A stretch of 64,000 nucleotides of DNA from Candidatus Anderseniibacteriota bacterium (lineage in GTDB: Bacteria; Patescibacteriota; JAUYIX01), in the NCBI GenBank assembly GCA_046350905.1, contig JAXLZN010000002.1, positions 65,293 to 129,292 on the forward strand. Reading direction: 5' to 3'. Numbering within the stretch: the stretch's first letter is position 1; each line of letters begins with the position of its first letter. Positions 2,389-61,799 of this stretch are shown here, in pieces. A program made the position numbers and the translations under genes. The notes beneath the pieces were generated by a model. The model was not told the DNA's origin and made no database searches. It worked only from the letters and a program-made list of their open reading frames with translations.

Positions 2389-2394
2389 TCCCCA

Positions 2395-2429
<35 letters not shown>

Positions 2430-2790
2430 TCCCGAGCGAGGTATAACGCGTTAACGACTCAGAGCGTGTCGAACGCGAAGCCTGGTACCCATCGTTTACG
2501 GCGTGGTTCCTGGGGTATCTAATCCGGAATTCCGCTCCCCACGCTTTCGTCCCTGGATGTCAGTGTTGGCCAGCTGACTGCCTTCGCAATTGGTGTTCTT
2601 CCCGATCTTAACGCATTTCACTGCTACACCGGGAGTTCCATCAGCCTCTCCGACCTCGTCTGGTATCCAGGCCAGATCGACGGTTGAGCCGTCGGATTTT
2701 AAGCTCGACTTTCGTAACCATTTGCCGGACGCTTTACGCCCAATGATTCCGGAAAACGCTCGAGGTCTCTGTATTACCGCTGCTGCTGGC

Positions 2791-3679: not shown

Positions 3680-4475
3680 ACAGAGTTAGCAACCTCTTAT
3701 TCCTGCAGTACCATCAGATCTTTTTCCTGCAGAAAAGCGGTTTACACTCCGAAGAGCTTCATCCCGCACGCGGCGTCGCGTCGTCAGACTTTCGTCCATT
3801 GCGAACTATTCCCAACTGCTGCCTCCCGTAGGAGTGGGACCCGTTCTCAGTGTCCCTGTGGCCGTACACCCTCTCGGGCCGGCTACCCGTCGTCGCCTTG
3901 GTGGGCTTTTACCCCGCCAACTAGCTGATAGGCCGCAGACTCCTCCCAAAGCGCAAAAGCTTTACCTACGTAGCCGAAGCTACGCAGACACATTCGGTAT
4001 TAGACCCGCTTTCGCAGGCTTATGCCGAACTTCGGGGCAGATTATCTACGTGTTACTCACCCGTTTGCCACTAGCGTGTAGTTCCCGACATCCGTCGGGC
4101 ACGCCCGTTCGACTTGCATGTTTTAGGCACGCCGCCAGCGTTATTCCTGAGCTAGGATCAAACTCTCAGAACGAGTTCGATCACTCAAAGGTTAACGTTT
4201 GCATGCACCGTACGCACGTGCCGGGACAAACCCGACCGTTAGCAGCACGGTGCTTCTGTCACGTTCCAGTTGTCAAAGTCCATCGATGAAACCGTGCGCT
4301 CAACTCGCGTCGAGCGTGGCTCACGTCACGTGCGGGTTGTCTGGTAGCGGCTTGCACCGCTAGCCCGCGTTTCGGTGGGTTTCCAAGCAGGACCCTCAAT
4401 CCGTTCGCGCCCGAGCAGGCTAGGTCAGGTTGCCGAGCACGTCAAGGACCCGCCTGTGCGTGGGCGGTGGACAGC

Positions 4476-9937: not shown

Positions 9938-10017
9938 ACTGTATCAAGCAAACGACGCTTTGTCAAGCGTCGAGGCCTCTGAAGCCACGTACTTTTGTGC
10001 GAACGTCCGCTCGCGCG

Positions 10018-10545
10018 CTACTGCTTCGGCTCTTCTTTTTTCTCCGGAGCGGGAGTAGCCGCTGGTTTTTCTGCAGGTGCAGCTGGTTTTTCTGCCGGCA
10101 CGGCTGGAGCTTCGGCAGGTTTTACCTCGGCCGGCTTCTCAGCTGGCGCTGCCTCGGCTGGCTTGCCCTGCGCTTTCTGCTTGGCTTCGGCGCGTTCTTT
10201 CTTGAGCTTGACGACCTGCTCTTTCCAGGTGCGGCGTTCGCTCAAACGCTTGCGGGCGTGCTCGCGGCGGGCGCGCTCACGCTTGAGGTCGGGGGCCTGC
10301 TCGACCTTGAGGAGGTCCTGCTTGATCAGGAGCTCAGCTGCCGGCACGCTCGGCTGAGCGCCCACGGAGAGCCAGTAGTCCAGGCGGGCCTTGTCGGCCA
10401 CGATCTTAGAGGGCTCCGACTTGGGGTCGTAGCTACCCAGGATTTCGACCACGCGCGAGCGGGGCGAACGGGTCTTTTCTTGCACCACCAGGCGGTAGGC
10501 GGGCAGGTTGGTGCGGCCGACGCGGGCCAGACGAATGGTTAGCAT
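10018..10545 (-). CDS. rpsP: 30S ribosomal protein S16 with ~95-aa Lys/Ala/Pro/Glu-rich C-terminal extension
   Basis: MLTIRLARVGRTNLPAYRLVV..YDP..YWLSVGAQPS, followed by PAEKPA-type repeats. Confidence 0.95.
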   Translation of the reverse strand: MLTIRLARVGRTNLPAYRLVVQEKTRSPRSRVVEILGSYDPKSEPSKIVADKARLDYWLSVGAQPSVPAAELLIKQDLLKVEQAPDLKRERARREHARKRLSERRTWKEQVVKLKKERAEAKQKAQGKPAEAAPAEKPAEVKPAEAPAVPAEKPAAPAEKPAATPAPEKKEEPKQ

Positions 10546-10557
10546 GCGGAGGAGAGG

Positions 10558-49185: not shown

Positions 49186-49974
49186 CTAGTCGCGCGCACT
49201 CTGCTGCCAGAACGAATTGAATAGGGCGCGCAGCATGCCGACGATGTACTCGTCCGTGATGACAACCGCGATGGGCGTCTTGGGTTGCCACAGCACCACC
49301 TTGTTGGCAAAGAGCTGAATCCCGGTGACAAACGGTGTCACTCCACGTAGTACCCGGGTTTCTCGCAGCTCGGCGACGTCCTTTCCCTTGAGGGTCTCCG
49401 TATCGGGGCTCGGCAGGAGCAGCGCATTAATCTTGATGCCCTTGCGCACGCGTGTGGCGATCCAACGCCGTTCCTCCGCCCACGAGATAAAGCCGATAAA
49501 ATCCTTAGCCGAACCCAGGAACTCCGTCGTCCCCTTGGCCTCATCGAGGATCTGGTAGAAGAGCTTGAGAAACTGATCACGCCCCTCCAGCACCTGGACC
49601 TGCGTCGCGGCGCTGCCCTGCCGGTACATGGCGAGCAAGTCGGGGAGTGCCCCCACGATGTCTTGGTCGTAGGTAGCGAGCGACTCACGCTTCTTACGTA
49701 GCAGCTCGCGCACGGTCGTGGGTGGTTCGACCACAAAGGTGCGTGCGTAGCGCCTGCGTTCCGAAAAGCGTGCCAACCCCTTACGCTCGAGGCCCTGGAT
49801 GAGCTTGTACATGTTGGGTCTCGAGATGCCGAGTCCTTTGGAGAGGGCGGCTAGCGACGCCGGCCCCATTGCCAGCGATAGCACGTAGAGCGCCGTTTCC
49901 TGTTCCGTAAGCCCCAGTTCCCGCAGCGAACTGTACAAGAGACGTTTAACTTGGCTTTGGCTGAGCTTGGCCAT
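49186..49974 (-). CDS. TrmB-family transcriptional regulator (paralog 1)
   Basis: 262-aa ORF with an N-terminal winged HTH (LGLTEQETALYVLSLAMGPASLAALSKGLGISRPNMYKLIQGLERKGLA) plus a TrmB-type C-terminal domain. Same architecture as 57894..58709. Confidence 0.8.
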   Translation of the reverse strand: MAKLSQSQVKRLLYSSLRELGLTEQETALYVLSLAMGPASLAALSKGLGISRPNMYKLIQGLERKGLARFSERRRYARTFVVEPPTTVRELLRKKRESLATYDQDIVGALPDLLAMYRQGSAATQVQVLEGRDQFLKLFYQILDEAKGTTEFLGSAKDFIGFISWAEERRWIATRVRKGIKINALLLPSPDTETLKGKDVAELRETRVLRGVTPFVTGIQLFANKVVLWQPKTPIAVVITDEYIVGMLRALFNSFWQQSARD

Positions 49975-50014
49975 GTCTATCTAATATAAGTATATAGATA
50001 GTATACACATATAA

Positions 50015-50073
50015 TAAATAAAGTCAATACAAAGCCAAATAGTATTGACTAATACGCTATAGTGCGCTATACG
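50015..50073 (+). promoter_or_regulatory. shared operator-like block plus candidate promoter (cassette 1)
   Basis: TAAATAAAG-N13-AAATAG-TATTGACT (50015-50050) matches 58781-58815. There is a dyad AGTCAATA/TATTGACT (50022-29/50043-50). TTGACT (50045-50), 17-nt spacer, TATACG (50068-73). A 5'-UTR hairpin CCAAAC/GTTTGG lies at 50082-50100. GACAAAGGAGA lies at 50127-50137. Confidence 0.5.
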
Positions 50074-50143
50074 TACCGGTTCCAAACAAAAGCCGTTTGG
50101 ACCTCTCGCAAGGGAGAATGTTCCTCGACAAAGGAGACTTATC

Positions 50144-50383
50144 ATGAAGATGAACTGGTCAGACATGAAGACCCTGCCCCGACGTTCCGAGAGGGACGGC
50201 GAATACCTCCTTGGTTTTGGTTTCGTGTTTCCCGACGAGTTCGTCGGTGAGGCCGAGGACCCGGAAGCGCCTCCAAGATTCATCAGCGGTGGGTGGACCA
50301 GGGCGGGGGTGACTGTCTTTCGTGATCGCGACGGCAGCCTGTACGCGGTGCCGTGCGAGGTATTCACCGGATGCAGTGGATGA
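50144..50383 (+). CDS. hypothetical 79-aa protein (first cistron of cassette 1)
   Basis: ATG lies 6 nt after AAGGAGA. MKMNWSDMKTLPRRSERDGEYLLGFGFVFPDEF...GCSG. No family recognised. Confidence 0.55.
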   Translation: MKMNWSDMKTLPRRSERDGEYLLGFGFVFPDEFVGEAEDPEAPPRFISGGWTRAGVTVFRDRDGSLYAVPCEVFTGCSG

Positions 50384-50411
50384 GCCTCTGGGTTAGACAG
50401 ATTTCCTGTGC

Positions 50412-50512
50412 GCAACGCAGCTGCGCAATGCTGCGACCGTTCGGCCAACATACATCGTTTTGGTTGGCCCTCCGTCAGAGCTGCCCTTGTCCGGCGGCTC
50501 TGACGGGGAAAC
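50412..50512 (+). promoter_or_regulatory. conserved three-hairpin RNA element, copy A (candidate cis-regulatory RNA)
   Basis: Aligns with 60550-60643. P1 at 50416-21/50430-35, P2 at 50443-49/50463-69, P3 at 50472-85/50493-506. Ends GGGGAAAC, 4 nt before the ATG at 50517. Confidence 0.6.
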
Positions 50513-50516
50513 ACAC

Positions 50517-51983
50517 ATGACCAAGCAACCAACCATCAAGAAATTAAAGAAAGTTGTCGTACTCGACACTATTTTTTTCTACCCCGAGCACCGGGCGGTC
50601 TTGGAGCAGCTCGCGGATGAAGTCATCGAGTACCCCTCGAGCCTGCCGGAGTCGCTCGAACGGCAGTACGTCGACAACCCGGAGCTATTCCGCAACGTTC
50701 GTTGCTACACGGAGCTCGGCGCCAACAATTCCTCGCTCCAGCTCCTCATGAACCGCATCGATGGCGCCGACTGTGTCATCAGCTGCTGGACGTGCATTCC
50801 TGACGAGATTCTCAAGCTCAACCCGCAGCTCAAGCTGATCGTCTTCTGGACGCACGAGAAGGAGCACCGCCTCAACCTCAAGCTCGCCGAGCAGTTCGGC
50901 ATCACCGTGACAAACATTCCCGACTACGGCACTGACGCGGTCGCGGAGGTCGTCTTTGCGGGACTGCTCGAGGTGCTCGCCAAGAACTACGTTACGCACA
51001 CGCTGCCGCAGAACGAGGAAAGCCTCGCCCTCACGGTCATGCACGAGCTGCTCCGCCGCCGCCGCATGCTCGACCGCAACGAGAAGTACACGCGGGCTGG
51101 GAAGTTCGTGCACCACTTCCACAAGCTCGGCAAGATCACCTTTGATCCCGGGCAGCGGACGCTCGATGAACTTATTCCAGAACGGCTGCTCGCGCGCGCC
51201 GGCGTAGCGCTCATCGGACAGCAGCCGTACGCACATCTCCGCACGTGGTTGCGAGCCTTTGAGGTGGTTGTCGATGAGCTGCCTGTGTTTGACGCGAGCA
51301 AGGCGGAGTTCTACCGCACGCTCGCCCGAAATGACTTCGTCGTGATCAGCAGCAATGAGCTCGATCCGAAGCTCGTGCAGAAAATCAATCTGCTCGCGGG
51401 TGTCAAGGTCGTCGACCTTGCGCAGCTCAAGACGATCGACTGGAGCGTCGCGGGCAAACGCTTTGGCGTGCTCGGTCTCGGCCGCATTGGTTCCAAAGTG
51501 GCGCGGGTCGCGCGCGACGTTGGATTTGAAGTGCAGTTCGCCGCGCGGGTCCCTGCTGCTCGTAGCGACCACCGCCACGTCTCAGTCAGTGAGCTGCTCG
51601 CAACTTCTGACGTGCTCTCGGTGCACCTTCCGGCGCACAAAGCCGACAACTTTTTGTCGGCCGATAAGCTCGCGCTCCTCAAGAAGGGCGGCATCTTCAT
51701 CAACACCGCTGACGGCAACATCACCGACACCGCCAAGCTGACCGAGCTCCTCAGCGCGAACCACGTGCTGGCCTACCTCGACGTCTACCCCGGCCTGCCG
51801 CGCAAGGATGTGTTCGGCTTGCCAATGGAGGACAAAGCGGACTGGAAACTCAAGGCTGCGCTCCCGCGCCACGTGCTCGCCTACCGCGCGGGCTGGAAGA
51901 CGCAGGAATCAATTCGAGTCAAAACCTTTGAGCTGCTCGGCCACATGGTCGACTACCTCACCTCGCACCCCCATGCCCACTGA
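50517..51983 (+). CDS. atypical D-isomer-specific 2-hydroxyacid dehydrogenase-family protein with large internal insertion
   Basis: Catalytic-domain pattern (..LKLIVFW..FGITVTNIPDYGTDAVAEVVFAGLL) and NAD fold GVLGLGRIGSKVARVARDVGFEV. More than 100 extra residues separate them. INTADGN replaces the family NxxRG motif. Confidence 0.7.
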   Translation: MTKQPTIKKLKKVVVLDTIFFYPEHRAVLEQLADEVIEYPSSLPESLERQYVDNPELFRNVRCYTELGANNSSLQLLMNRIDGADCVISCWTCIPDEILKLNPQLKLIVFWTHEKEHRLNLKLAEQFGITVTNIPDYGTDAVAEVVFAGLLEVLAKNYVTHTLPQNEESLALTVMHELLRRRRMLDRNEKYTRAGKFVHHFHKLGKITFDPGQRTLDELIPERLLARAGVALIGQQPYAHLRTWLRAFEVVVDELPVFDASKAEFYRTLARNDFVVISSNELDPKLVQKINLLAGVKVVDLAQLKTIDWSVAGKRFGVLGLGRIGSKVARVARDVGFEVQFAARVPAARSDHRHVSVSELLATSDVLSVHLPAHKADNFLSADKLALLKKGGIFINTADGNITDTAKLTELLSANHVLAYLDVYPGLPRKDVFGLPMEDKADWKLKAALPRHVLAYRAGWKTQESIRVKTFELLGHMVDYLTSHPHAH

Positions 51984-52842
51984 ACGCCAAACGCGAGCAA
52001 CCTTCAACCGGCTCAAGCGGTTCTACGACGCGAGCTGGGACCCCAAACGTAAGACGCTCCACGTCGGTCTGTTCCGACAAGCGGACGACTCCCTGCAGCG
52101 TGCCTACGCGAACGCGACGAGCTACCTGCTCGAGCTCGTCAACGAGCAGCGGCGCATCACCGCGCAATCGGTTGTGCTCGACGTTGGCTGCGGTACAGGA
52201 CAAACGTTGCTCGACCTGTGTGCACGCGTTGGCTGCCGTGGCGTCGGCCTCGATCTGAGCGACGCGCAGGTTTCGCACGCGCGGGCTGACCTCCGCGCCC
52301 GGAATGCGCTGCGAGTCAAGCGCAACCTGCCAAAGCTGCGCTGCACGTTCATCCGCGGCAGTGCGAGCGTGCTCACGCGCCACGTCGGGGCCCGGCCGGA
52401 GTTCACGCACGTGATCAGCCAGGACGCGCTCTTCCTCGCAGCCAACAAGCAGCGCGCGTTCCAGGGCATCGCTACGGTACTTGTCCCAGGCGGCGTGGTC
52501 GGCATCGCAGACTTCCTGCAGCAGGCCTCTGCCGCACGCTACAGTTCGCCCGCCCGTCGCGCGATCTTCAAGGTGGTCAACTGGCAGGAGGGTTTGTCGT
52601 TCGAGCGGTACCAGCGTGCGCTACGTACAGTCGGACTCGACGTCGTCCACGCCGAGCAACGCGATCGCGACATGATCAAGACGTACACGCTGCTCGTCCG
52701 GCAGCTCGCAGCGTTCATCGACCGTCACCCAACCTACCGCACGCTGCGCGAACGGTACCAGAGCATCGTTGCTGCGGTGCGCGCAGGCAAGATGGGGTGG
52801 GCGCTCTGCATCGCGCGCAAGCCGCTCACCGCACGCCAATGA
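51973..52842 (+). CDS. class I SAM-dependent methyltransferase
   Basis: ATG at 51973 overlaps the upstream stop by 11 nt. VLDVGCGTGQTLLDL (motif I), GVGLDLS, and LVPGGVVGIADF (post-II). The N-terminal HVGLF....SLQRA is typical of small-molecule MTases. Confidence 0.8.
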   Translation: MPTERQTRATFNRLKRFYDASWDPKRKTLHVGLFRQADDSLQRAYANATSYLLELVNEQRRITAQSVVLDVGCGTGQTLLDLCARVGCRGVGLDLSDAQVSHARADLRARNALRVKRNLPKLRCTFIRGSASVLTRHVGARPEFTHVISQDALFLAANKQRAFQGIATVLVPGGVVGIADFLQQASAARYSSPARRAIFKVVNWQEGLSFERYQRALRTVGLDVVHAEQRDRDMIKTYTLLVRQLAAFIDRHPTYRTLRERYQSIVAAVRAGKMGWALCIARKPLTARQ

Positions 52843-53582
52843 AGTACGTCATCGGCAACTGGAAGATGAACCCGACCGAGCTGCCCCGCGCGCTCGAACT
52901 GATCCGCGCGACCGAGGCAGCAATCCCGGCCGGCACACCGCGCGGCTGCGTAGCGATCGCGGCACCGTTTGTGTACCTCCACCCGCTTGCCTGCGAGACC
53001 GCTGCCGTCGCACTCGCCGCGCAGGACACCTTCTGGGATCAGGCTGGCGCGTACACTGGGCAGGTCTCGCCCGCCATGCTGAAGGGTCTGGGCGTGCGGT
53101 ACGTCTTGATCGGCCACAGCGAACGCCGCACGCACGCATTTGAAACCGACGCACACATCACGCATAAGGTGCGCGCTGCTCTCGACGCCAATCTACGCGT
53201 GATCCTCGCGGTCGGCTCGCGCGCTCGATCAGAAGCAGCGGTCCTGCGTGACATCCGTCGGCAGCTGCGGGTGCTCGACGTACTCGGCAGCGGTCGTGCG
53301 CAGGGTCGCCGGGATTTGCTCATCGCGTACGAACCGCTCGTGGCGATCGGCACCGGGCAGGCGGCACCAGTCGACCACGTGCGTCGCGTCGCTGCAGAAA
53401 TCAGCAGACTGTCCGGGGCACCCGTGCTGTACGGCGGCAGCATCAGCCGCAAGAACGCGAGCACGTACCTCGCGCTGCCGGAGCTTGCTGGCGTGCTCGT
53501 CGGGAGCGCGAGCCTGCGTGCGCGCGAGTTCGCTGCAATTATCCAGGCTGCCGAGCAACTCTCCCACCACCATGACTCCTAA
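52839..53582 (+). CDS. tpiA: triosephosphate isomerase
   Basis: ATGA overlap with the methyltransferase stop. IGNWKMN, IGHSERR, YEPLVAIGTG and YGGS motifs. The loop-6 Trp of the usual EPxWAIGTG is Val here. Confidence 0.8.
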   Translation: MKYVIGNWKMNPTELPRALELIRATEAAIPAGTPRGCVAIAAPFVYLHPLACETAAVALAAQDTFWDQAGAYTGQVSPAMLKGLGVRYVLIGHSERRTHAFETDAHITHKVRAALDANLRVILAVGSRARSEAAVLRDIRRQLRVLDVLGSGRAQGRRDLLIAYEPLVAIGTGQAAPVDHVRRVAAEISRLSGAPVLYGGSISRKNASTYLALPELAGVLVGSASLRAREFAAIIQAAEQLSHHHDS

Positions 53583-54222
53583 GAAAATCATTCTCGCCGG
53601 CACCAAGCCGCACTCCATCGCACGCGTCATTGGGCGCCACCTGCACGAGCAAGGCTGGGACGTGTGGCTCTACAGTCGTCACGCCAAGCGGGTCGAGCAC
53701 ACTCGCTGGCACGAGCGTCGCTGCGACGTAACGAAATCGGCTGACATTGCACGCCTCCTCTCAGAGGTTGGTACGCCGCAGGCTGTGGTGTTCAGCGCTG
53801 ATTCGGATGGCCACGGCACCATCCAACGTATTTCTGAACGGCGGCTCCGTGCGCTCATCGATGCCAAAGTGACGGGCAGCATTCTCTTGACCAAGCGCGT
53901 GCTCGCACATTCGCGCAAGCCGGTTTCACTCGTGTGGCTGATCGGCAAGATTGGGGTCAAGCCACAGGACCTCTTCCTGTACGGCGTCGTCAACGCGGCA
54001 GTCGTTGCCTTCGTAGATCAGCTCAAAGCGCTGGGTCGAACGGTGCGACCGTACATGCTGCCGCTCGGGGTGATCACGCCATCGACGCTCGGTGATGCGT
54101 ACCTGCGCCAGAATCCCGGGAAGCAGCTTGCGACGGATTCGCCGGTGAACGTCGCACGTTTCGTCGCTCGCATCCTCCGGGGGGGGGTACGCATCCGGTA
54201 CCGTACAAAGGGATCAATCTGA
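53572..54222 (+). CDS. short-chain dehydrogenase/Rossmann-like protein with degenerate SDR motifs
   Basis: ATG at 53572 overlaps the tpiA stop by 11 nt. KKIILAGTKPHSIARVIG sits in place of TGxxxGxG. LYGVVNAAV sits in place of YxxxK (no Lys). Confidence 0.55.
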   Translation: MTPKKIILAGTKPHSIARVIGRHLHEQGWDVWLYSRHAKRVEHTRWHERRCDVTKSADIARLLSEVGTPQAVVFSADSDGHGTIQRISERRLRALIDAKVTGSILLTKRVLAHSRKPVSLVWLIGKIGVKPQDLFLYGVVNAAVVAFVDQLKALGRTVRPYMLPLGVITPSTLGDAYLRQNPGKQLATDSPVNVARFVARILRGGVRIRYRTKGSI

Positions 54223-54325
54223 GATGGTGTAGCACCGCTCGCAATCCGTGATTGCCGTTGCTTGGTCGGGATGTGACCTGACCAGGAAACGGAAATTACG
54301 GAACGTCCTTCACAAGGGAGAAAAC

Positions 54326-54658
54326 ATGAAAAATACTGTGCAGCTCGGGTACCTGCTCCTCCTCATGCTCTCTTTTTTCAACGCGATATTCGGCTCCCAA
54401 CAGCCAACGCTTAGCAGGCTGCTCTGGGCTCTCTTCTACAGCACGTTGGTTATTGCATTCGTGCTGAAACCGCCCGCAGACGATGGGTATGTCGGTGCCG
54501 CCCGAATCGTATACGCGTTTGCGTTACTGATGATGGCTGGATCATGGATTGGTCGAAGTCCAACCCCCATCACGTCAATGTGGAGTGCCATTACTTTTGT
54601 TGTAGCTGCCGACAACTGGCTGCTCTGGAGTAAGTGCCGGACCGAGAGCGATCAGTAA
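54326..54658 (+). CDS. hypothetical small membrane protein (3-4 TM helices)
   Basis: ATG lies 6 nt after AAGGGAGAA. MKNTVQLGYLLLLMLSFFNAIF.. GC is lower than in the upstream operon. Confidence 0.6.
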   Translation: MKNTVQLGYLLLLMLSFFNAIFGSQQPTLSRLLWALFYSTLVIAFVLKPPADDGYVGAARIVYAFALLMMAGSWIGRSPTPITSMWSAITFVVAADNWLLWSKCRTESDQ

Positions 54659-54682
54659 CGTCTTGAAATCTGACGTCGCAGT

Positions 54683-54724
54683 GCCGCCTAGTAGGTCTTC
54701 GGGCTGAACGGCGGCTTCTCTTTG
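54683..54724 (+). terminator. terminator-like hairpin after cassette 1
   Basis: GCCGCC (54683-88) pairs with GGCGGC (54710-15), followed by TTCTCTTT. Confidence 0.45.
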
Positions 54725-54811
54725 GCAAGAACTATGGGGAGCCACCTCCACGCGTGCAGCTGTCCATGCCAACACCCTCATGGTGATCTTCGAGATCGGC
54801 TGGACAGCGGC

Positions 54812-56308
54812 CTACAAACCGCTGCGGCCAAACTTCTTCTCAGATTCGTCGAACTTCCTCTTGAGCTCTTCTGAGCGAAAGAATACATGGCGAGCAGGGT
54901 CGTAGAGAAACCCCATCTGCTCGAACCCCTCGGGCGTGGCGCGTGGATCGCCTGGCGGTAAGCGAAACACTGCTGCCATCTGCTCGAGTGTGTAACGAGG
55001 AATCCAGGTGGCGGGCTGCTCTTGCAGCTGCGACGTTAGCGCGAGCATCCGTTTGCTGACCGAGGCGACTGTATCGTCCGCTGAAATGGGAACCCGCAGA
55101 GAGGCCTCAATGCGCTGCCCGACTTCTTCGACCACTCCTATCCGTCGCACGATGGCACGGTTCGCTTGTGAGAGGTGGTCCCAGCCGATGGTGATCGCAC
55201 CCTCGTTGCCCACGTTCTTAGCGTTGGCTGTGGACATGAGCGTCTCGATGTTCTTGTCGAAGAGCTCCTCTACCGCTGGTATGAGGGGCGGCTCAATCAC
55301 TTCATGAATGAGGCTGCGTTCGGTGAGCAATGTACTACCGGATAGCTCAATGGGCTGCACAGCACGCATGGACGGCGACAGAGGTTCGACCTGGTCCGAC
55401 CCTTCAGCCTCGTCGATGGGCTCTACGGCGCTCTCATTGGGCCAAGGCTCGCGGTTGTCAAAGTAAAGGCCGCCATCGCGCACGGCCTGTTTGGCATCGC
55501 TGCCTTTCATGCTCGGCGCCCTATTGAAGAGCATGACTAGGTCGAACTTCTCCGTCCGCTCCTTGAACTGACTTAACGTTTCTGGCAGGAGGGTAACGAC
55601 GTAGTCCACGCCGCCATGCTTAAAGTGGAGCGTCCTGTGGGTTGTATCGTAGCGGGCCTGCCGGTCGTAGCTGCTCTTGATGCGGTCAACCAGAGCCGCG
55701 ACGTGGCGGTCATCAAGTACGGGATCAACCAGCGTGATGTCTCGGGCACCTGCCAGAATCGCCAGCTCGACGTCGTCCGCTGAACCAAAGTACACGGCCC
55801 GCCGGTAGTGCTCCGGCTCACCTGTAGCAGTGGCATGCTCACTGATCATTTGAGCAAAATGCAGCTTGTCGCGCTTGATCGTGTCCGCAAAGCCAATTGA
55901 GTGGACCTGTAAGTTTCTGGCTAGCACCTGTTCTGCAGGTGGGAGTTTCTCGACTTGGCGCTCGAATTCACGCCGGGTAAGCTCGGCGTTCGCATACATA
56001 TCGGCGAAATCGACGATGTTTTGGTCAAGCGCTGCCCGGTCGACGTGCGCTGCATCAAGCTCGTTCATCGCCGCGTGTGTCTCTATGGCACGCTCGAGCA
56101 CTCCGTTGAGGGTCTCATCGTCGATCTGCGGATGACCGGCCTTCCAACGTTCGGCAGAAACGGTTTGACGGTTCGTAGCCTCCTCAGTCTCGAGCTGCGC
56201 AGGTTGTTCGCCAGGCTGCGACGGCGGCAGGATGCCCTCGTCCTCTCGAGGATCTGGGGCAGGTGCATTCTCTTTCTTAGTGGCCATGCCTGTATGGTAC
56301 TCCTCCAT
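54812..56308 (-). CDS. hypothetical 498-aa protein (acidic N-terminus; possible Rossmann-like core)
   Basis: Intact ORF in a lower-GC region. AVYFGSADDVELAILAGARDITLVDP resembles a nucleotide/SAM-binding beta-alpha-beta strand. No family recognised. Confidence 0.55.
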   Translation of the reverse strand: MEEYHTGMATKKENAPAPDPREDEGILPPSQPGEQPAQLETEEATNRQTVSAERWKAGHPQIDDETLNGVLERAIETHAAMNELDAAHVDRAALDQNIVDFADMYANAELTRREFERQVEKLPPAEQVLARNLQVHSIGFADTIKRDKLHFAQMISEHATATGEPEHYRRAVYFGSADDVELAILAGARDITLVDPVLDDRHVAALVDRIKSSYDRQARYDTTHRTLHFKHGGVDYVVTLLPETLSQFKERTEKFDLVMLFNRAPSMKGSDAKQAVRDGGLYFDNREPWPNESAVEPIDEAEGSDQVEPLSPSMRAVQPIELSGSTLLTERSLIHEVIEPPLIPAVEELFDKNIETLMSTANAKNVGNEGAITIGWDHLSQANRAIVRRIGVVEEVGQRIEASLRVPISADDTVASVSKRMLALTSQLQEQPATWIPRYTLEQMAAVFRLPPGDPRATPEGFEQMGFLYDPARHVFFRSEELKRKFDESEKKFGRSGL

Positions 56309-56516
56309 TCTGCTTGCGCGTGAGCTTCTTTCAACCTTCCGGCAGTACTCTTTACATTTCGCGCAGCATGAACAAGTTCGCTCAGCACCTCGAATAACGC
56401 GGGCCCCTTTACGTATTCACGCAATATGGTTTGATGCGTGCATGGGTGTGGAAACTCCCGGACCAGGCGAAGCTGGGAACGCAGACAAATCAATTGTACG
56501 AGAGCGCGAGGCGGCC

Positions 56517-56969
56517 ATGCAGCGCTACGCCGGCCGCACGTTCAAGACTGAGAAGGGATGGACCTACACGTACGATGACCGCGGGCGTACGACGCGACAG
56601 CAGGCTGAAACCGGACACACGCACGCCCCGCAAGATCTCACGGTTTTTGTCGAAATGAACGTAGAAGAGAAACTATCCTTTGCTGCCGCAATGCATGCAG
56701 AAAATGACGACCCGGCATCAAAGGAAAAGGTTTACGTCGTTGAACGAGGCTCCGACAATCAGCCTCGGATCGTGGAATCGTGGGCAGATATTACCGACCC
56801 ATCGAAGCTATCTATTGCGATTGTGCGTGATGGCAAAATGCTGAGGTTCAAACCGGTCACGCTTCGGCCTAGGGTTGGTTCGTACGTCTTTGATACGAGG
56901 CTATTTCGAGACCGGCACGGCAAGTCGTACAAAGAGAGGCACTTGGGGCACAGAGTTACTGAAGTATAG
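56517..56969 (+). CDS. hypothetical 150-aa protein (alternative start 56442)
   Basis: MQRYAGRTFKTEKGWTYTYDDRG..., with GAGG 5 nt upstream of the ATG. No family recognised. Confidence 0.45.
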   Translation: MQRYAGRTFKTEKGWTYTYDDRGRTTRQQAETGHTHAPQDLTVFVEMNVEEKLSFAAAMHAENDDPASKEKVYVVERGSDNQPRIVESWADITDPSKLSIAIVRDGKMLRFKPVTLRPRVGSYVFDTRLFRDRHGKSYKERHLGHRVTEV

Positions 56970-57020
56970 GTAGTAGAAAAAGTCTTCGGTTAGCTGATGC
57001 TGGGCCGAATATGCTCTACG

Positions 57021-57057
57021 TTCGCTGCACCACTGGCTCGATAAGTTTTTCCGCTAG
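57021..57057. repeat. direct repeat copy 2: orphan hppA 3' fragment
   Basis: 57025-57057 is identical to 48329-48361. TTCGCTG (57021-27) matches 48311-17 if 14 nt (GGCAGTTTGCCCTG) are deleted. There is no hppA body upstream. Confidence 0.95.
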
Positions 57058-57081
57058 ACTGCAGGATCTCGAAGAGCGAAC

Positions 57082-57107
57082 AGAGCGCGGCCGGTAGGCC
57101 GCGCTCT
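57082..57107. terminator. strong hairpin (probable original hppA terminator; also directly follows the stop of the convergent 57111 gene)
   Basis: AGAGCGCGGCC-GGTA-GGCCGCGCTCT, an 11-bp perfect stem. The T-tract is weak on both strands. Confidence 0.5.
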
Positions 57108-57110
57108 TGC

Positions 57111-57884
57111 CTATTGAGCGCTGTCTGTTTGCGTAGAGGATGGGGCCCAGGTAAATCGAACATTTGCGTCGTAGTAGTCCAGCGAACCGTGGCCGGAGTA
57201 CTCCCACCCTTCCGTCGCTAGGATGCCGCGGGGAGATGGCGTAAGGGTGTGCGAGGGTCCTTCCAAAGAATCATCCAGTCCCAAGCCAATTTTCAGCATA
57301 GCCTTATCGTAGTAGGCATCTAAGAACTTTGGCATGGTGAGTTCGCTCAATCGATAATCACCGATAGGACCCTTCACTGGCCCCGGCTTTTGTTCAAAAT
57401 CGGCAATTGCGCTTTTAAGCTCCTCAGGGGGGTTTCCAGAAAAGATTCGTTCCACGTATTCTTTTGCGAGTTCGGGTAACTTGTCATATCGCCCTTTGAT
57501 TGACGGCTCTCTGGAAACAAGGGCCCAGCTTCGTCTTACGGAGTCGTTGAAATCGTCACGTGAAACAAACTCACCGCCGTAGTATGCCTGCTCACCTTTT
57601 GGAACATGCCTCAACACAAGCTTGGAAAGTCTTTCCGCAGTAAGCGGCGCTCCCTCCTCGTCATGTTGAACCCTGAAAATGAGAACGAGGTCATTCTCCT
57701 TGGCGACATCAATGTCTCTCTTGGAGAAGGGTAATGGAGGAATATCGCGTTCAGGAATCTCGATTTTGAGAAACTCAGAAACTTGCTTAGGCCCGATAAC
57801 ATCCCTCCCGAGTATACTTTCCGCGTATTCCAGGTTGGCCTTTTCGTTCTTGCCTTCTGGATTGATGCTTCCGATTTCGCGCAC
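57111..57884 (-). CDS. hypothetical 257-aa protein, co-oriented 9 nt downstream of TrmB paralog 2
   Basis: Intact ORF with low GC. No family recognised. Confidence 0.55.
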   Translation of the reverse strand: MREIGSINPEGKNEKANLEYAESILGRDVIGPKQVSEFLKIEIPERDIPPLPFSKRDIDVAKENDLVLIFRVQHDEEGAPLTAERLSKLVLRHVPKGEQAYYGGEFVSRDDFNDSVRRSWALVSREPSIKGRYDKLPELAKEYVERIFSGNPPEELKSAIADFEQKPGPVKGPIGDYRLSELTMPKFLDAYYDKAMLKIGLGLDDSLEGPSHTLTPSPRGILATEGWEYSGHGSLDYYDANVRFTWAPSSTQTDSAQ

Positions 57885-57893
57885 GGCTTATTG

Positions 57894-58709
57894 TTAGGTC
57901 TTACTGCTTGAGGATACTCCAGCCCACGCCAGCTCAAAGATCATGACCATCATGTCGTGAATGGTTTTGTCCTCGATGATCGTAGCAGCAAACTGAGGAC
58001 CGCTGAAGTTGATTATCGAGACCTTGTTGATACCATAGACGGTAATGTCGCTCTTATACGGAAAGAGCTTCTGCGGCACGTGCCGGACTTTTGGCCAAAT
58101 CTTCTTTGAGTAGCCTGCGTAGATGGTCTTGCTGTAGTCCACATCGACTTCGGTGTAGGGCAGCACGGCTCGGGCTGTGATCGACAGCTTCTCTTTCCTA
58201 CGGATGTACGTGTGAATGAACTTCTCGGGCAGGAACTTCAGCAGATCCGCAGTGTTCGCAAATGCCAGCATTTCGTAGGGCCCCTTCCCTGATACGTGGT
58301 CCTCGAAGACCTTCAGGACGCCCTCTTTACCCTCAAAGAACCTGACAATCGGCTTGTTAGCGGCGTGCGAGTAGAGCCCCTCCAGCGTAGGGAGGAGAGC
58401 CTGCATGCTCTCGAGGTCTCGCTTGGCGAGGGTGATACGAGACTGCGCATGCCGTTCTAGGCTCTTGGGGTTCTCAACCTGGTAGAAGAGCTTGTTGCGC
58501 TTCTCAAGCTCAGAAACGAGTCCTTTGACGGCCAGGTTCTCCAGCACTTTGTAGGTAGTGCTGCGGTTGAGCTTGGTGAGTTCCGCAACCTTGGATGGGT
58601 AGGCCCCACCTGCTTGGAGGAGGGCAGCGTAGACAGCAGCCTCCTTTCCAGCCAGCCCGGCTTTCCTGAGCTGTTTTTGGATGTTGCTGTCTTCAGTAGC
58701 CATCTGCAA
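57894..58709 (-). CDS. TrmB-family transcriptional regulator (paralog 2)
   Basis: 271-aa ORF with a wHTH (AGLAGKEAAVYAALLQAGGAYPSKVAELTKLNRSTTYKVLENLAVKGLV) and a C-terminal domain colinear with 49186..49974. Confidence 0.8.
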   Translation of the reverse strand: MQMATEDSNIQKQLRKAGLAGKEAAVYAALLQAGGAYPSKVAELTKLNRSTTYKVLENLAVKGLVSELEKRNKLFYQVENPKSLERHAQSRITLAKRDLESMQALLPTLEGLYSHAANKPIVRFFEGKEGVLKVFEDHVSGKGPYEMLAFANTADLLKFLPEKFIHTYIRRKEKLSITARAVLPYTEVDVDYSKTIYAGYSKKIWPKVRHVPQKLFPYKSDITVYGINKVSIINFSGPQFAATIIEDKTIHDMMVMIFELAWAGVSSSSKT

Positions 58710-58780
58710 ACCAGTCTACGCTGTATTACCAATTTTGTCAATTCTAACGAACAAAATGAAAGTAGAATGAAATATTTGTT

Positions 58781-58836
58781 TAAATAAAGCCATAAACAGC
58801 AAATAGATTGGCATTGTAGAAGCACAAAATATGAAT
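58781..58836 (+). promoter_or_regulatory. shared operator-like block plus candidate promoter (cassette 2)
   Basis: TAAATAAAG-N11-AAATAG-ATTGGCA (58781-58813). TTGGCA (58808-13), 17-nt spacer, ATGAAT (58831-36). A 5'-UTR hairpin GTTTCC/GGAAAC lies at 58855-70. GACAAAGGAGA lies at 58880-90. Confidence 0.5.
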
Positions 58837-58899
58837 TCCGAGCTACAAAGATCTGTTTCCAAAGGGAAACAAATTCATTGACAAAGGAGATAGAACGCC

Positions 58900-60519
58900 A
58901 TGGCTAAGCCCAAGGTGCTGTTCGTCAAGGCCGCGCAGGAGAGCGATGCTACCTGGGACCCGATCCGGATGAGCCCTAACCAGGGCCTCTGGTACCTGGC
59001 CTCGGAGCTGCGCGAGCAGGGCTACTACGTGCGTCTCATCGATGAGACCACGCGCCACGGCGGACTCCACAAGCACTCCATGGTGCACCGCACGATCAAG
59101 CTGGCCACCAAGGCTGGCGAGGTCGACGAGGTGTACGAGGTGCCTGTGGTGACGCCGTTCGCCGATCATATCCGGAGCAAGATGGAAGACTTCGAGCGGC
59201 TCTCCCCTGGAGAGTTCGTCGAGAAGCACTCCGCCTTCCGGATTCCCGGCGAGATCAACCGCACGGTCGTCCGGACCGGCAACCCCATCGAGCACACGCT
59301 CGAGGACATCGAGCGGGAGCTGGCCAGCGGAGACGCGGTGATCGTGGGCATTCCGTTGCCTGCCACCTCGAACTACGTTTCGGCCACTCGGCTCGGCAAG
59401 GCCATCAAGGACACCTTCGGCCAGCACGTGAAGGTGATCTACGGTGGGCAGCACATCACGGCGATGCCGGGGCAGTTCCTCAAGGACAACCCCTGGGTCG
59501 ACGTGGCCGTGTGCGGGGATGCCGTGACGACGATCGAGCGGGCGCTCCAGTGCGCGCTCGATGGGACCACCAAGGTCGTCTGGAGGATGTGCGGGGATAA
59601 GACGGCGAGGCAGGAGGACATTTCCTGCTACCCGCTGCTCGACCCCACGCTCCTCGAGGAGAACGAGTACCCGACGCGCCCCAACCATACGTTCGATACG
59701 GATGGGCGCAGGTGGGTGGACTTCATGACCTCCAAGGGTTGCGGGCTGAGCTGCGAGTTCTGCGGCGTCAGCGGCATTCCCAAGGAGGAGAAGAAGTACT
59801 CGGCGATTCCGCTCGATAAGCTCGAGCAGCAGCTCTTGCTGTTCAAGCGGGCGGACATCTCCGAGCTCGTGATCCAGGACGACGCGGTCCTGTCGAACAA
59901 GCTTCTCCCGGGGGCAGTCGCGCTCTTCAAAAAGCACGGCTTCTCCTGGCAGAACAACGGCGGCATCGAGTACGAGAGGATCGACGATGCAACCGTGGAG
60001 CAGTGGAGCGCGTACAACCGCTCGGGCGAGGGTCGCACCACCGCGCTCTACGTGCCCTTCAATCCACGCGAGTGGAACGAGGGGCAGAGCGCTGGCGTGA
60101 CCCAGACCCAGCGGCGGCCCCACGTGGTCGAGCTCCTCAAGAAGCTGCGCGAGTCTGGCTGCTACGTGTTCTCTTCGGAGATCATCGGGCAACCGACCGA
60201 GCGGCGCGAGGAGTCCGGGCGCGATACGGCCCGGTACATCGACCTGGTGCGTGAGGGCTACATCGATCAGGCCCTCACGTTTTCCGCCACAGTCCTGCCG
60301 GGCACCAAGTGGTCATGGAAGCACGGCGCCCTCGTGGTCAGTAGCATTGACTACGTCGGGTACAGCCTGTTCACCACGCACCACCGCACCTACTGCATCT
60401 CCGACCCGCGCGAGATCGAGCGCTGGGTGGTTGAGCGGAACAAGACGCTCAACGAGGTGCAGCGCTCCTACGCCTGGGGCACGGCGTTTCCAAACGTCGG
60501 GCCGCAGGTGGGTGAGTGA
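58900..60519 (+). CDS. B12-binding-domain radical SAM enzyme (class B-like)
   Basis: Intact 539-aa ORF. N-terminal Rossmann-like cobalamin-binding-type region (VLFVKAA...GLWYLASELREQGYYVRLID..., ..VIVGIPL..., VIYGGQHITAMP). Radical SAM CxxxCxxC (GCGLSCEFCG, 59740-59763). Confidence 0.8.
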   Translation: MAKPKVLFVKAAQESDATWDPIRMSPNQGLWYLASELREQGYYVRLIDETTRHGGLHKHSMVHRTIKLATKAGEVDEVYEVPVVTPFADHIRSKMEDFERLSPGEFVEKHSAFRIPGEINRTVVRTGNPIEHTLEDIERELASGDAVIVGIPLPATSNYVSATRLGKAIKDTFGQHVKVIYGGQHITAMPGQFLKDNPWVDVAVCGDAVTTIERALQCALDGTTKVVWRMCGDKTARQEDISCYPLLDPTLLEENEYPTRPNHTFDTDGRRWVDFMTSKGCGLSCEFCGVSGIPKEEKKYSAIPLDKLEQQLLLFKRADISELVIQDDAVLSNKLLPGAVALFKKHGFSWQNNGGIEYERIDDATVEQWSAYNRSGEGRTTALYVPFNPREWNEGQSAGVTQTQRRPHVVELLKKLRESGCYVFSSEIIGQPTERREESGRDTARYIDLVREGYIDQALTFSATVLPGTKWSWKHGALVVSSIDYVGYSLFTTHHRTYCISDPREIERWVVERNKTLNEVQRSYAWGTAFPNVGPQVGE

Positions 60520-60549
60520 CGTGCCACCGAGGATGTCGCATCAGCGACC

Positions 60550-60643
60550 GCAACGCAGCTGCGCAGCGCTGCGACATGGCCAACTCATTGATTAGTTGGC
60601 CCTCCGTCAGAGCCGCTCTTCTCGGCGGTTCTGACGGGGAAAC
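60550..60643 (+). promoter_or_regulatory. conserved three-hairpin RNA element, copy B
   Basis: P1 at 60554-59/60568-73, P2 at 60578-84/60595-601, P3 at 60604-16/60625-37, ending GGGGAAAC. Lies between the radical SAM stop and the 106-aa ORF. Confidence 0.6.
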
Positions 60644-60673
60644 CCGATCGTACATTAGAGAGGAGAAACCAAA

Positions 60674-60994
60674 ATGAACTCTGCCGAAAAGTTCGTGCGT
60701 TTGTCCGAGGCCAATTTGATCACCGAGTGCACCCAGATCAAGACCTCGTTCCACGACCTCAAGCGGCTGACCATCAACACGGTCGGCATGATGCGTATCC
60801 AGTTCCAGGGCGACGTGCCCCGGATGCGCACGCAGAACTGGGATGGTAGCTACGACGTGGACATCTACTCCGATAGCGTCGTGACCATTCACGACCAGCA
60901 CGGAGTCCACTGCTACGTCGTGACCTGGTCCAAGCGGAGCGACAAGCTGCCGACCACGCACATCCTGCCGCGCCTCCCGGAGGTCGAGGACTAG
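60674..60994 (+). CDS. hypothetical 106-aa protein (last cistron of cassette 2)
   Basis: ATG lies 8 nt after GAGAGGAGAAA. MNSAEKFVRLSEANLITECTQIKTSFHDL... No family recognised. Confidence 0.6.
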   Translation: MNSAEKFVRLSEANLITECTQIKTSFHDLKRLTINTVGMMRIQFQGDVPRMRTQNWDGSYDVDIYSDSVVTIHDQHGVHCYVVTWSKRSDKLPTTHILPRLPEVED

Positions 60995-61001
60995 CGGCAC
61001 T

Positions 61002-61033
61002 AAGGGCGCCCGGAAAGATTTCCGTGCGCCCTT
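61002..61033 (+). terminator. terminator hairpin after cassette 2
   Basis: AAGGGCGC...GCGCCCTT with an inner CGGAA/TTCCG stem, followed by TAATGTT. Confidence 0.55.
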
Positions 61034-61166: not shown

Positions 61167-61799
61167 TTAACTGACTTCCAGAGCGTCGATAGGTACGTTG
61201 CCCAACGCTCGCATCGGCCGTTCTTCTCCACGCGACAAACTGACATATCGTGCCCATGACACATAATCGGCGATCTGGCCGTTGAGATCGGCCATCGTAC
61301 TGTGGAAGAACACGTGAAACGGTTTTCCTGTCGTTTTCAAGACCGGCTTAATCGCTTTCAACAATGCACGTTGCTCTTTCCGGATAAGCGTCTTGTCGAA
61401 GATAACCACTATTCTTTTTAGCGGTGTCGTTGACCAAATCTGTAGCGTTCGAGTAAGCAGTGCACGGCCAAATCGAGCATACATAGACACGGGGTCCCGC
61501 AAATTAGTGGGGAGCAGCCGTTTCTGAGCGTGCGCAACGCAGCACCTAATTCCGTGTGTACTGTTGATAGTGGAGAAGACTTGATCGCGCACTAATTGCG
61601 CATCTGGTGCGGCATGAAAAAAGGGAACGTCGATGCCACGCGACAGAAGCCAGTACCGCAGCTGTAGCAACGGACGCGCCGATGCGATGGGCTGCATGGT
61701 CGACATAGATCCCATCACAAAGTACTTGGTGCCAAGCTCAGAAAAATCGAAGTTGCCAGACTCGTCAATGAAAACGAATAACGTGCCTTGTGTGTTCAC
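61167..61799 (-). CDS. DUF3800-family protein
   Basis: 210-aa ORF with low GC. N-terminal LFVFIDESGNFDF matches the DUF3800 IDESG signature. Confidence 0.65.
   Translation of the reverse strand: MNTQGTLFVFIDESGNFDFSELGTKYFVMGSMSTMQPIASARPLLQLRYWLLSRGIDVPFFHAAPDAQLVRDQVFSTINSTHGIRCCVAHAQKRLLPTNLRDPVSMYARFGRALLTRTLQIWSTTPLKRIVVIFDKTLIRKEQRALLKAIKPVLKTTGKPFHVFFHSTMADLNGQIADYVSWARYVSLSRGEERPMRALGNVPIDALEVS

Follow-up and report, generated by a model that had tools for sequence, protein, structure and literature searches.

Archaeal regulators of the TrmB family share a DNA-recognition tyrosine (equivalent to Y50 of Pfu TrmB and TrmBL2), and their operators are inverted repeats, such as TACT-N3-AGTA, TATCAC-N5-GTGATA (TGM) and TACT-N7-8-GAGTA; TrmBL1 and Tgr control glycolytic genes, and TrmBL2 is without the C-terminal effector domain (PMC4158304). 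TrmB-type repressor cassettes are known building blocks, and so are the B12-binding (class B) radical S-adenosylmethionine (SAM) enzymes. Here we describe an island that contains both and is itself undescribed, located in a 64-kb stretch of contig JAXLZN010000002.1 (hereafter, the window) from Candidatus Andersenbacteria, a lineage of the Candidate Phyla Radiation (CPR). Its radical SAM and dehydrogenase-like proteins are 100% identical to proteins listed by NCBI under a Candidatus Andersenbacteria metagenome-assembled genome. Bacteria of the CPR and DPANN archaea possess very few regulators, and their accessory metabolism is mostly unexplained. A previous sequence-only reading of the window had listed two cassettes, each with a TrmB-type regulator that faces an enzyme operon, and every gene on that list was recovered at its place. 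The genes, which that reading could assign to no described pathway, remain without one: the family libraries and the literature searched contain neither a pathway nor an island for these genes.

With slightly more confidence than doubt, the locus as a whole is best explained as two old, separately regulated regulator–enzyme modules which form a conserved CPR island, part of which is also present in DPANN archaea. Module A would consist of the regulator gene trmB1 and, divergent from it, genes for a protein with an NAD(P)-binding fold that descends from 2-hydroxyacid dehydrogenases and is devoid of the canonical Arg, Glu and His, a class I methyltransferase and an atypical short-chain dehydrogenase/reductase (SDR), to which triosephosphate isomerase (TIM) would have been recruited in the Andersenbacteria lineage. 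Module B would consist of trmB2 and the divergent gene of a class B radical SAM enzyme.

Two modules in the window and in its relatives

The loci of relatives (L001–L036, n=36) were obtained by context look-ups around homologs of the radical SAM (rSAM) and dehydrogenase-like enzymes; in the following, trmB1|DH and trmB2|rSAM denote the divergent gene pairs, DH being the dehydrogenase-like gene. The gene order in L001, where the radical SAM enzyme is 71% identical to that of the window, is trmB2(-)|rSAM(+), followed directly by TIM(-) and trmB1(-)|DH(+). Loci L034 and L035 have the arrangement TIM-trmB1|DH-methyltransferase-(SDR), and trmB2|rSAM is found in L002/L003 and L036. In the Uhrbacteria-type contigs L015 and L017, a TrmB gene divergent from a small open reading frame (ORF) and a B12-binding radical SAM gene adjoins trmB1|DH-methyltransferase(-SDR). 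The distance between the modules is 7 kb in the window and at most ~2 kb in L001, L015 and L017, so that the two cassettes, for which a lack of co-occurrence in relatives had been named as refuting, do co-occur. Altogether, orthology and synteny extend trmB1|DH-methyltransferase(-SDR) to 5 further lineages and TrmB|B12-rSAM likewise to 5 further lineages. On a contig of Woesearchaeota (DPANN; L019), TrmB|DH is followed by a different radical SAM gene, which encodes a 379-aa protein without a B12 domain and is located directly 3' of the dehydrogenase-like gene (9604-10743). In L015, the two modules are adjoined by a further TrmB cassette, the third of this locus, whose radical SAM gene is MoaA-like (337 aa; 1031-2967). 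Together with the Woesearchaeota gene, this cassette indicates that the link between TrmB-type regulators and radical SAM enzymes recurs. Judged by orthology and gene order, each module is a conserved unit; the two are often neighbors and are separable.

The enzyme genes of module A follow the order reported earlier (atypical 2-hydroxyacid dehydrogenase, methyltransferase, tpiA, degenerate SDR), with the start of the first gene now refined, so that its product comprises 488 aa rather than 507. This protein (50517-51983, plus strand) matches PF02826 with 95 bits and PF00389 with 31 bits, and its matches in a search of PDB profiles reach E 1.7e-36. The AlphaFold2 (AF2) model (pLDDT 85) adopts the 2-Hacid_dh fold, with a Foldseek probability of 1.00 to 5tx7, 6p2i and 8pio. 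The family retains the NAD(P)-binding domain with the GxGxxG motif. In all 27 aligned members, an invariant Asp takes the place of the catalytic Arg ('INIARGKVVD' in 2dbq vs 'INTADGNAVD') and Gly or Pro that of the catalytic Glu ('DVFEEEP' vs 'DVYPGLP'), and the usual catalytic His is absent from the conserved columns of the same alignment. An insertion of ~150 aa carries invariant His/Cys-rich motifs (WTHEKEHR, HHFHKLG). The family yields 749 hits, compared with 88 for the radical SAM family, and, among the listed hits with a taxon name, it is represented only in CPR and DPANN, where it is widespread. Its members are labeled 'lactate dehydrogenase-like' or 'glyoxylate reductase' in databases; taken at face value in metabolic reconstructions, such labels may mislead for this family of ~490-aa proteins.

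The next gene encodes a CMAS-like class I SAM methyltransferase (51973-52842, plus strand; 289 aa), which is recognized by Pfam methyltransferase domains and for which all NCBIfam matches are below cutoff. Its orthologs, 47-48% identical, are located 3' of DH in L015–L018, and a homologous methyltransferase gene occupies this place in L034/L035. The methyltransferase gene is followed by those of TIM (52839-53582, plus strand; PF00121, E 1.7e-58) and of the atypical SDR (53572-54222, plus strand; 216 aa), for which only weak SDR matches, below the Pfam gathering thresholds, are obtained; stop and start codons overlap at every junction from the dehydrogenase-like gene through the SDR gene. Conserved in the SDR are the non-canonical motifs AGTKxxSIGR and YxxxN. 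In L017/L018, the methyltransferase and the SDR are one fused protein, the SDR being the C-terminal half. In L015, an insertion sequence element (10325-12077, with an rve-family integrase gene at 10635-11453) separates the SDR part from the methyltransferase gene 3' of DH. In L001 and L034/L035, TIM is read in the same direction as trmB1, the stop codon of one gene overlapping the start codon of the next, and it is absent from the Uhrbacteria-type modules (L015, L017). Directly 3' of the SDR stop codon in the window there is a long, near-perfect hairpin (54251-54297, plus strand), at which the DH operon probably ends; the match of this hairpin to the Rfam family mir-230 is at chance level (E 0.0074). 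The small membrane ORF that follows (54326-54658, plus strand) is not conserved in the loci of relatives.

The radical SAM enzyme of module B (58900-60519, plus strand; 539 aa) combines a B12-binding domain, PF02310 (45 bits, cutoff 32.1), with a radical SAM domain, PF04055 (E 2.5e-5; 25.0 bits, under the gathering score of 29.5). The CxxxCxxC motif reads CGLSCEFC, and the three cysteines (C281, C285 and C288) are invariant in 27 homologs. A PDB search started with the family profile identifies the B12 domain of TokK as the sole relative (E 1.8e-12). The curated NCBIfam families (TokK/ThnK, the PhpK/Sden_1168 P-methylases, C-methylases of ribosomally synthesized and post-translationally modified peptides (RiPPs), KedN5, BchE, MJ_1487) score 19-27 bits against cutoffs of 251-700. 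By these scores, this is an uncharacterized class B family. A look-up of the exact protein sequence returned no record. Its 88 homologs come from CPR, DPANN, a metagenome-assembled genome of Firmicutes and a cyanobacterium. In CPR and DPANN, the gene usually stands alone with its own divergent winged-helix regulator, which in DPANN is of a different kind. Scans of viral contigs with both enzyme families, the dehydrogenase-like and the radical SAM one, gave no match. In the cyanobacterium Limnospira (L010/L011, 6920-10103), a radical SAM homolog with 40% identity is encoded between the tryptophan-tRNA ligase gene (trpS) and a YbaK-like tRNA_edit gene, which are followed by an SSF transporter gene, a setting quite unlike that in CPR. 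The neighbors of the distant homologs were considered as a functional clue and left unused, being mutually inconsistent: L004 has SufS and a UbiE-like methyltransferase, and Limnospira has trpS and the YbaK-like gene. In the close relative L002, a heliorhodopsin gene (9162-9926) is found ~4.5 kb downstream of trmB2|rSAM.

Regulators and candidate operators

Both regulators, TrmB1 (49186-49974, minus strand; 262 aa) and TrmB2 (57894-58709, minus strand; 271 aa from TTG, or from an ATG two codons in), are winged-helix proteins of the TrmBL2 type, which match PF01978 with 39.0 and 48.7 bits, respectively, at a cutoff of 25.6. With 27% identity over the full length (E 4e-14), they are distant paralogs; no further TrmB paralog was found in the window. 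PF01978 is matched, with E 0.01 or better, by all 13 cassette regulators from the window and the loci of relatives. A PDB profile search started with the profile of these 13 proteins identifies TrmBL2 (5bpd) end to end (E 2.4e-11), positions 11-253 of the 255 in the profile being aligned with residues 9-263 of the 264 in TrmBL2, vs the N-terminal ~140 residues only (2-137) for the sugar-sensing TrmB (3qph). Given that TrmBL2 is matched over its whole length and that no Pfam match to the C-terminal TrmB sugar-binding domain was obtained for the regulators of the window or for the other cassette regulators, the sugar-pathway background of TrmB is not directly transferable to these proteins. The recognition-helix Tyr is retained ('TTYKVL' in TrmB2; 'nvYkvL' in the profile, aligned to 'RTYDVL'), and the Asp or Glu next to it is replaced by Lys in these sequences. 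An AF2 model of TrmB1 built from a 2-sequence alignment (pLDDT 48) is too poor for use. Orthologs of TrmB1 (51-53% identical) are always paired with DH, and are divergent to it in L001, L015, L017 and L034; in L001 and L002/L003, a TrmB2 ortholog (59-69% identical) is encoded divergently from the radical SAM enzyme. In L036, a TrmB-family gene occupies the trmB2 position opposite the radical SAM gene.

Each regulator gene is accompanied by an inverted repeat of its own. Counts of DNA motifs, and of the RNA element discussed below, cover the 64-kb window, plus the 36 loci where stated. The candidate operator of TrmB1, GTATA-N7-TATAC (49990-50006), overlaps the -10 element of the predicted trmB1 promoter (TTGACT-16-TATACT, 50027 to 50000). 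It is a single site in the window and is found once per trmB1|DH spacer in L001, L015, L017, L018, L034 and L035; there is no further site in the window or the 36 loci. The candidate operator of TrmB2, ATTTTGT-N12-ACAAAAT (58732-58757), is located around the -35 element of the predicted trmB2 promoter (TTGACA-17-TAGACT, 58741 to 58713). There, the sequence TTGTCAAYNNTAACGNACA, kept in L001, L002/L003 and L036, forms TTTTGT-N12-ACAAAA, and TTTTGTCAA-N3-TAACGNACA is found only at trmB2|rSAM. The trmB2-side motif agrees between the window and L001 over 24 nt with 2 mismatches, a likeness reached by 0 of 500 shuffles. By their distribution, the best operator candidates, GTATA-N7-TATAC and TTTTGT-N12-ACAAAA, are each specific to one module.

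A third box, TAAATAAAG(T/C)C, is located between the divergent promoters in both spacers of the window, which contains no further exact match; thus, the possibility raised earlier that the box is a generic dispersed repeat is not borne out. On the module A side, the box TAAATAAAGTC is accompanied by a 9-nt dyad of two back-to-back -35-like hexamers, AGTCAATAC-N11-GTATTGACT, with TTGAC within the right arm (box and dyad, 50015-50050; dyad, 50022-50050). On the module B side, TAAATAAAGCC, AAATAG and ATTGGC make up a candidate shared box with the -35-like TTGGCA (58781-58813). A box common to both spacers of L001, TTTTGGCTTWGTAAAG, extends over 16 nt with one mismatch (0 of 500 shuffles). The two copies of the box in one genome are more alike than orthologous boxes across genomes, a pattern that fits a shared factor.

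The strongest short similarity between the two spacers of the window is in the ribosome-binding region (17 nt with 2 mismatches; 3 of 500 shuffles). The sequence GACAAAGGAGA precedes the first genes of both cassettes, on the module B side at 58880-58890, downstream of a hairpin in the 5' untranslated region (5'UTR) at 58851-58874 (both on the plus strand); the 5'UTR hairpin of the other cassette is at 50081-50101. One more exact copy of GACAAAGGAGA lies inside a coding region. These leader features, and the dyad with its -35-like right arm, are all present as first described. In L015, GTTACACAA is common to the 5'UTRs of three neighboring TrmB cassettes, upstream of the coding start (spacers 1769-1953, 3889-4075 and 7837-8000), which points to a leader motif peculiar to that genome, much like the ribosome-binding context that both cassettes of the window have in common. 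A search of the window for GCTTWRTAAAGC at 3 mismatches was uninformative, with 86 matches vs 80 expected.

The RNA element, the small ORFs and the genomic setting

Each plus-strand operon contains one copy of the same ~100-nt, three-hairpin (H1, H2, H3) RNA element, as had been noticed earlier, and the likeness of the copies is far above chance. Copy 1 (50408-50515, plus strand) is located upstream of DH and scores 130 bits with the covariance model. Copy 2 (60535-60646, plus strand; 114 bits) lies directly after the stop codon of the radical SAM gene and begins with an additional hairpin, H0 (60535-60548), the element proper being 60546-60646. An unfiltered covariance-model search of the window detects these two copies only, and the next site, an unrelated one, has 11 bits. 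Over 108 columns, the mean column identity of the copies is 88% (blastn E 2e-10 and 3e-6); two copies of the 19-mer GTTGGCCCTCCGTCAGAGC are present where 0.02 are expected, the boundaries of similarity are sharp, and the folding z-scores are -4.3 and -5.7. The element is the only strongly non-random similarity between the cassettes. Neither copy has an Rfam match, at the gathering threshold or with E up to 5.

The comparison with relatives differs between the two positions. After the radical SAM stop codon, L001 and L029 retain all of H0–H2; in L036, H0 and the beginning of H1 are seen before the contig ends. Compensatory changes are observed in H0 (C-G to U-A), in H1 (C-G to U-A) and in the eighth pair of H2 (U-A to C-G), and no stem-breaking change is found in H0–H2 except in the outermost pairs of H1 and H2; the loops of H0 and H2 are variable, and that of H1, UGCGCAAU, is conserved. 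In L001 and L029, H2 is followed by a T-run (TTTAACTTTATTTATTTTTTT or TTTAAAATAT), so that it is terminator-like. H3, a stem of 16 bp, is present in the window only, and the differences between its two copies preserve pairing via G·U; the G·U pairs of the element fit the plus strand only, given that they are A·C mismatches on the other strand. No U-run follows H3 in the window, where the next sequence is GGGGAAAC, and a terminator scan was empty at both copies. Upstream of DH, the element is absent in every relative (L001, L034, L035, L015 and L017), the loci having been scanned with the covariance model as well. A search with the H1–H2 pattern against one genome per species (596 Gb) and JGI metagenomes identified, as true relatives, only the L001 contig and L029, the rest being chance matches in unrelated taxa; the pattern has one copy in the species-representative genome of a relative. 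Thus, the suspicion of a generic dispersed repeat, also voiced earlier, did not materialize. The position after the radical SAM stop codon, the few copies and their absence at the DH genes of relatives indicate that, in this lineage, the radical SAM transcript has a structured 3' region. In the DNA searched, the element is neither a dispersed repeat nor a conserved component of the two-module system, and by itself it is of local interest only. To judge from its anatomy, it most likely acts as an intercistronic stabilizer, a processing site or a partial barrier. The 3' arm of H3 in copy 1 covers GGGGA, 7 nt upstream of the DH start codon, so occlusion of the DH ribosome-binding site is possible as well.

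The two small ORFs that flank the element are unrelated to each other by comparison. The 79-aa ORF (50144-50383, plus strand) is an ORFan of uncertain coding status, with a GC content at third codon positions (GC3) of 0.70. Its only homolog is an identical sequence, it has no Pfam, NCBIfam or PHROG match, and no relative examined carries it upstream of DH. Its translation-initiation region resembles that of the L001 radical SAM gene (1 of 200 shuffles), and descent from the radical SAM gene would be speculation from this likeness alone. A collapsed duplicate of the radical SAM gene was considered and rejected, given that the 3'-end similarity is reached by 646 of 1000 shuffles and that the collinear tblastx matches are mostly to the RNA element. 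The 106-aa ORF (60674-60994, plus strand) is a real gene by its codon bias (GC3 0.90) and is lineage-specific; a terminator-like hairpin (61004-61031) can be read from the sequence downstream. Its homologs are one 102-aa protein and repeats in three metagenome proteins of 1300-1700 aa, each of which it matches in 6-9 separate stretches, which suggests that the 106-aa protein is one unit of a domain that is repeated in them. The loci of relatives lack this ORF. With the 79-aa ORF being an ORFan and the 106-aa ORF absent from relatives, the sequence-only view that the regulon makes or modifies a small protein is not supported.

The profile searches that had been recommended for the small and unassigned ORFs (Pfam, NCBIfam, PHROG) led to no family for the 79-aa ORF and the inter-cassette ORFs of 257 and 498 aa, which have no counterpart in the loci of relatives either. 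The GC content of the window is ~0.62 and falls to 0.53-0.58 in the 54–62 kb stretch, where GC3 is low (0.53-0.68) in the ORFs at 54812-56308 and 57111-57884 (both on the minus strand) and in a DUF3800 gene (61167-61799, minus strand), none of which has a counterpart in the loci of relatives. These low-GC genes beside and between the cassettes may be recently acquired filler. Far from the island, a 16S rRNA gene (1809-4173, minus strand) is split into two matched parts (1809-2983 and 3620-4173) by an insertion that contains a match to a group I intron (3384-3689) with 50.2 bits, at the gathering score of 50; such an interrupted gene fits a CPR origin.

Competing explanations and comparison with known systems

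Under the two-module explanation, the regulators, which consist of a winged helix and a C-terminal domain with no sugar-binding subdomain detected, would bind GTATA-N7-TATAC over the trmB1 -10 element (TrmB1) and TTTTGT-N12-ACAAAA around the trmB2 -35 element (TrmB2). In this way, each would act as a repressor of its own gene and determine how strongly the divergent operon is expressed, and the weaker third box between the divergent promoters of both spacers may couple the two modules. The substrate that the enzymes methylate and reduce is probably a small metabolite, possibly one derived from a triose or a sugar, and probably not a peptide, an assignment in which we place low confidence. In the 3' element of the radical SAM gene, H2 and the U-run of relatives would resemble a terminator; the lineage of the window would have gained H3 and lost the U-run, and a single duplication would have placed the ~105-nt element in the DH operon leader, where H3 would occlude the ribosome-binding site.

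Several points weigh against this explanation. The operators are deduced from conservation and position only and the role of the RNA element from its anatomy, the covariation comes from a thin set of 3-4 distinct sequences, and the sample is small, with ~8 independent lineages. The promoter block that the sequence-only reading held to be shared (TAAATAAAG..AAATAG..ATTGRC) is not significant within the window, where the common 9-mer has a blastn E of 3.2 and the sub-blocks are spaced differently in the two copies; a comparable box is significantly shared in one relative (L001), and an AT-rich promoter feature of the UP type could account for the shared box. Genes of the radical SAM family are also found without the DH module (DPANN archaea, Limnospira, L002, L004) or with other neighbors, which, together with the far larger number of hits to the dehydrogenase-like family (749 vs 88), means that a single pathway is not established. 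The original argument from a duplicated operator and leader to one regulon is weak: the best operators are module-specific, and the RNA element, the leader with the ribosome-binding region and the promoter block are mostly lineage-specific or weak. What remains of the proposed SAM/B12-dependent system is the conserved, undescribed two-module island, without the single regulon and with an RNA element that is not conserved in the DH operon.

The alternatives differ in how much they leave of this island. It is possible, albeit rather unlikely, that the modules are functionally unrelated, that CPR genomes gather TrmB cassettes in one region, and that the shared features of the window stem from one recent local duplication with no regulatory meaning. 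Module-specific candidate operators, regulators that are just 27% identical, radical SAM genes without DH in L002, L004, DPANN archaea and Limnospira, the third, MoaA-like cassette adjoining both modules in L015, and the restriction of element copy 1 and the 79-aa ORF to this genome would all be expected in that case; proximity within ~2 kb in three lineages that span Andersenbacteria-like and Uhrbacteria-like genomes, the box significantly common to both L001 spacers, and the radical SAM gene directly 3' of the dehydrogenase-like gene in a DPANN archaeon would not. At the other extreme, the modules could be halves of one SAM/B12-dependent pathway of ultra-small symbionts (CPR/DPANN) that was exchanged between domains, in which a metabolite or lipid precursor scavenged from the host would be remodeled by a pseudo-dehydrogenase (its active site being of a new kind and possibly metal-dependent), the methyltransferase–SDR pair and the class B methylase, with TrmBL2-type regulators acting through operators of their own and the three-hairpin RNA coupling the operons post-transcriptionally; we regard this more ambitious scheme as doubtful.

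The remaining alternatives concern single components and are much less probable. That the RNA element is a selfish or REP/MITE-like dispersed repeat (REP, repetitive extragenic palindromic; MITE, miniature inverted-repeat transposable element) or a generic terminator, unlinked to the system, is improbable: tandem GC-rich hairpins in intergenic DNA, the sharp boundaries and the clearly recent insertion upstream of DH are typical enough of such repeats, but there are two copies in 64 kb by an unfiltered covariance model, H1–H2 is found once in the genome of a relative and elsewhere only as chance matches, its location 3' of the radical SAM gene is shared with relatives, in which the stems show compensatory changes, and a terminator is hardly compatible with the missing U-run after H3 and the empty scan. 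A RiPP-like system, in which the radical SAM enzyme would modify the 106-aa or the 79-aa product, is brought to mind by small ORFs that flank the element beside a class B radical SAM gene and by a weak match to the RiPP C-methyltransferases of NCBIfam (E 4.5e-5; 22 bits vs a cutoff of 282). It is highly improbable, given that neither small ORF accompanies the radical SAM gene elsewhere: the 79-aa ORF lacks homologs, the 106-aa domain is repeated in giant proteins and missing beside the radical SAM gene in every relative, and the enzyme family is typically stand-alone with its own regulator. Equally hard to credit is ordinary central carbon metabolism in module A, with a glycolytic TrmB-type regulator of TIM and a true D-lactate or glycerate dehydrogenase. 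TIM is tied to trmB1 in two arrangements, archaeal TrmBL1 and Tgr regulate glycolytic genes (PMC4158304), and the family names 'lactate dehydrogenase-like' and 'glyoxylate reductase' point the same way; against this, none of the 27 aligned members has the catalytic Arg and Glu, nor is the usual His conserved, TIM is missing from the Uhrbacteria-type modules, and the invariable partners are the methyltransferase and the atypical SDR.

The firmest new items are the module-specific candidate operators, the whole-length match of the regulators to TrmBL2 and the loss, judged from the alignment, of the canonical catalytic residues in the CPR/DPANN 'dehydrogenase' family. The locus represents a recurring regulator–operator–enzyme unit with concrete candidate DNA sites, one of which, GTATA-N7-TATAC, is kept from Andersenbacteria-like to Uhrbacteria-like genomes.

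Among described enzymes, the closest to the dehydrogenase-like protein are the D-isomer-specific 2-hydroxyacid dehydrogenases (glyoxylate/hydroxypyruvate reductase, phosphoglycerate dehydrogenase, D-lactate dehydrogenase, CtBP), with which it shares the two-domain fold and the GxGxxG domain; of their catalytic Arg (N-x-[STAG]-R-G), Glu and His, the family has none in canonical form. Similarly, classical SDRs are characterized by TGxxxGxG and YxxxK, and the SDR of the window has neither motif. The radical SAM enzyme has the N-terminal B12 domain and CxxxCxxC core of the class B methylases (TokK, the P- or C-methyltransferases of the Fom3/PhpK type, BchE), but, by score, it falls outside every characterized subfamily. 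The RNA element resembles the intercistronic or 3'-end hairpins of the REP/BIME type (BIME, bacterial interspersed mosaic element) in its tandem GC-rich hairpins between cistrons and at a gene 3' end. Those repeats are dispersed, whereas the element has two copies in the window and one in a relative. In relatives, H2 with its T-run is like an intrinsic terminator, unlike the window, where the U-run is missing; from stem-loop stabilizers, the element differs by the conserved H1 loop and the covarying stem, and it belongs to no Rfam family.

The regulators are closest to the TrmB family of Thermococcales and haloarchaea and, in particular, to TrmBL2 (5bpd/5box), with which they share the PF01978 winged helix, the conserved recognition Tyr, an equal length (about 262-271 aa) and a profile match over the whole protein; compared with TrmB sensu stricto and TrmBL1 (~340 aa, with a C-terminal sugar-binding effector domain), they are shorter, and that domain is not detected. 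The candidate operators, short AT-rich inverted repeats with a 7-12-nt spacer placed on promoter elements, are similar to the sites of TrmB-family repression. Unlike the archaeal family, the cassette regulators are bacterial (CPR) and, if they bind these predicted sites, would act at sigma-70-type promoters. Whereas TrmBL2 is a chromatin-like global binder, the cassette regulators are each paired with one divergent enzyme operon.

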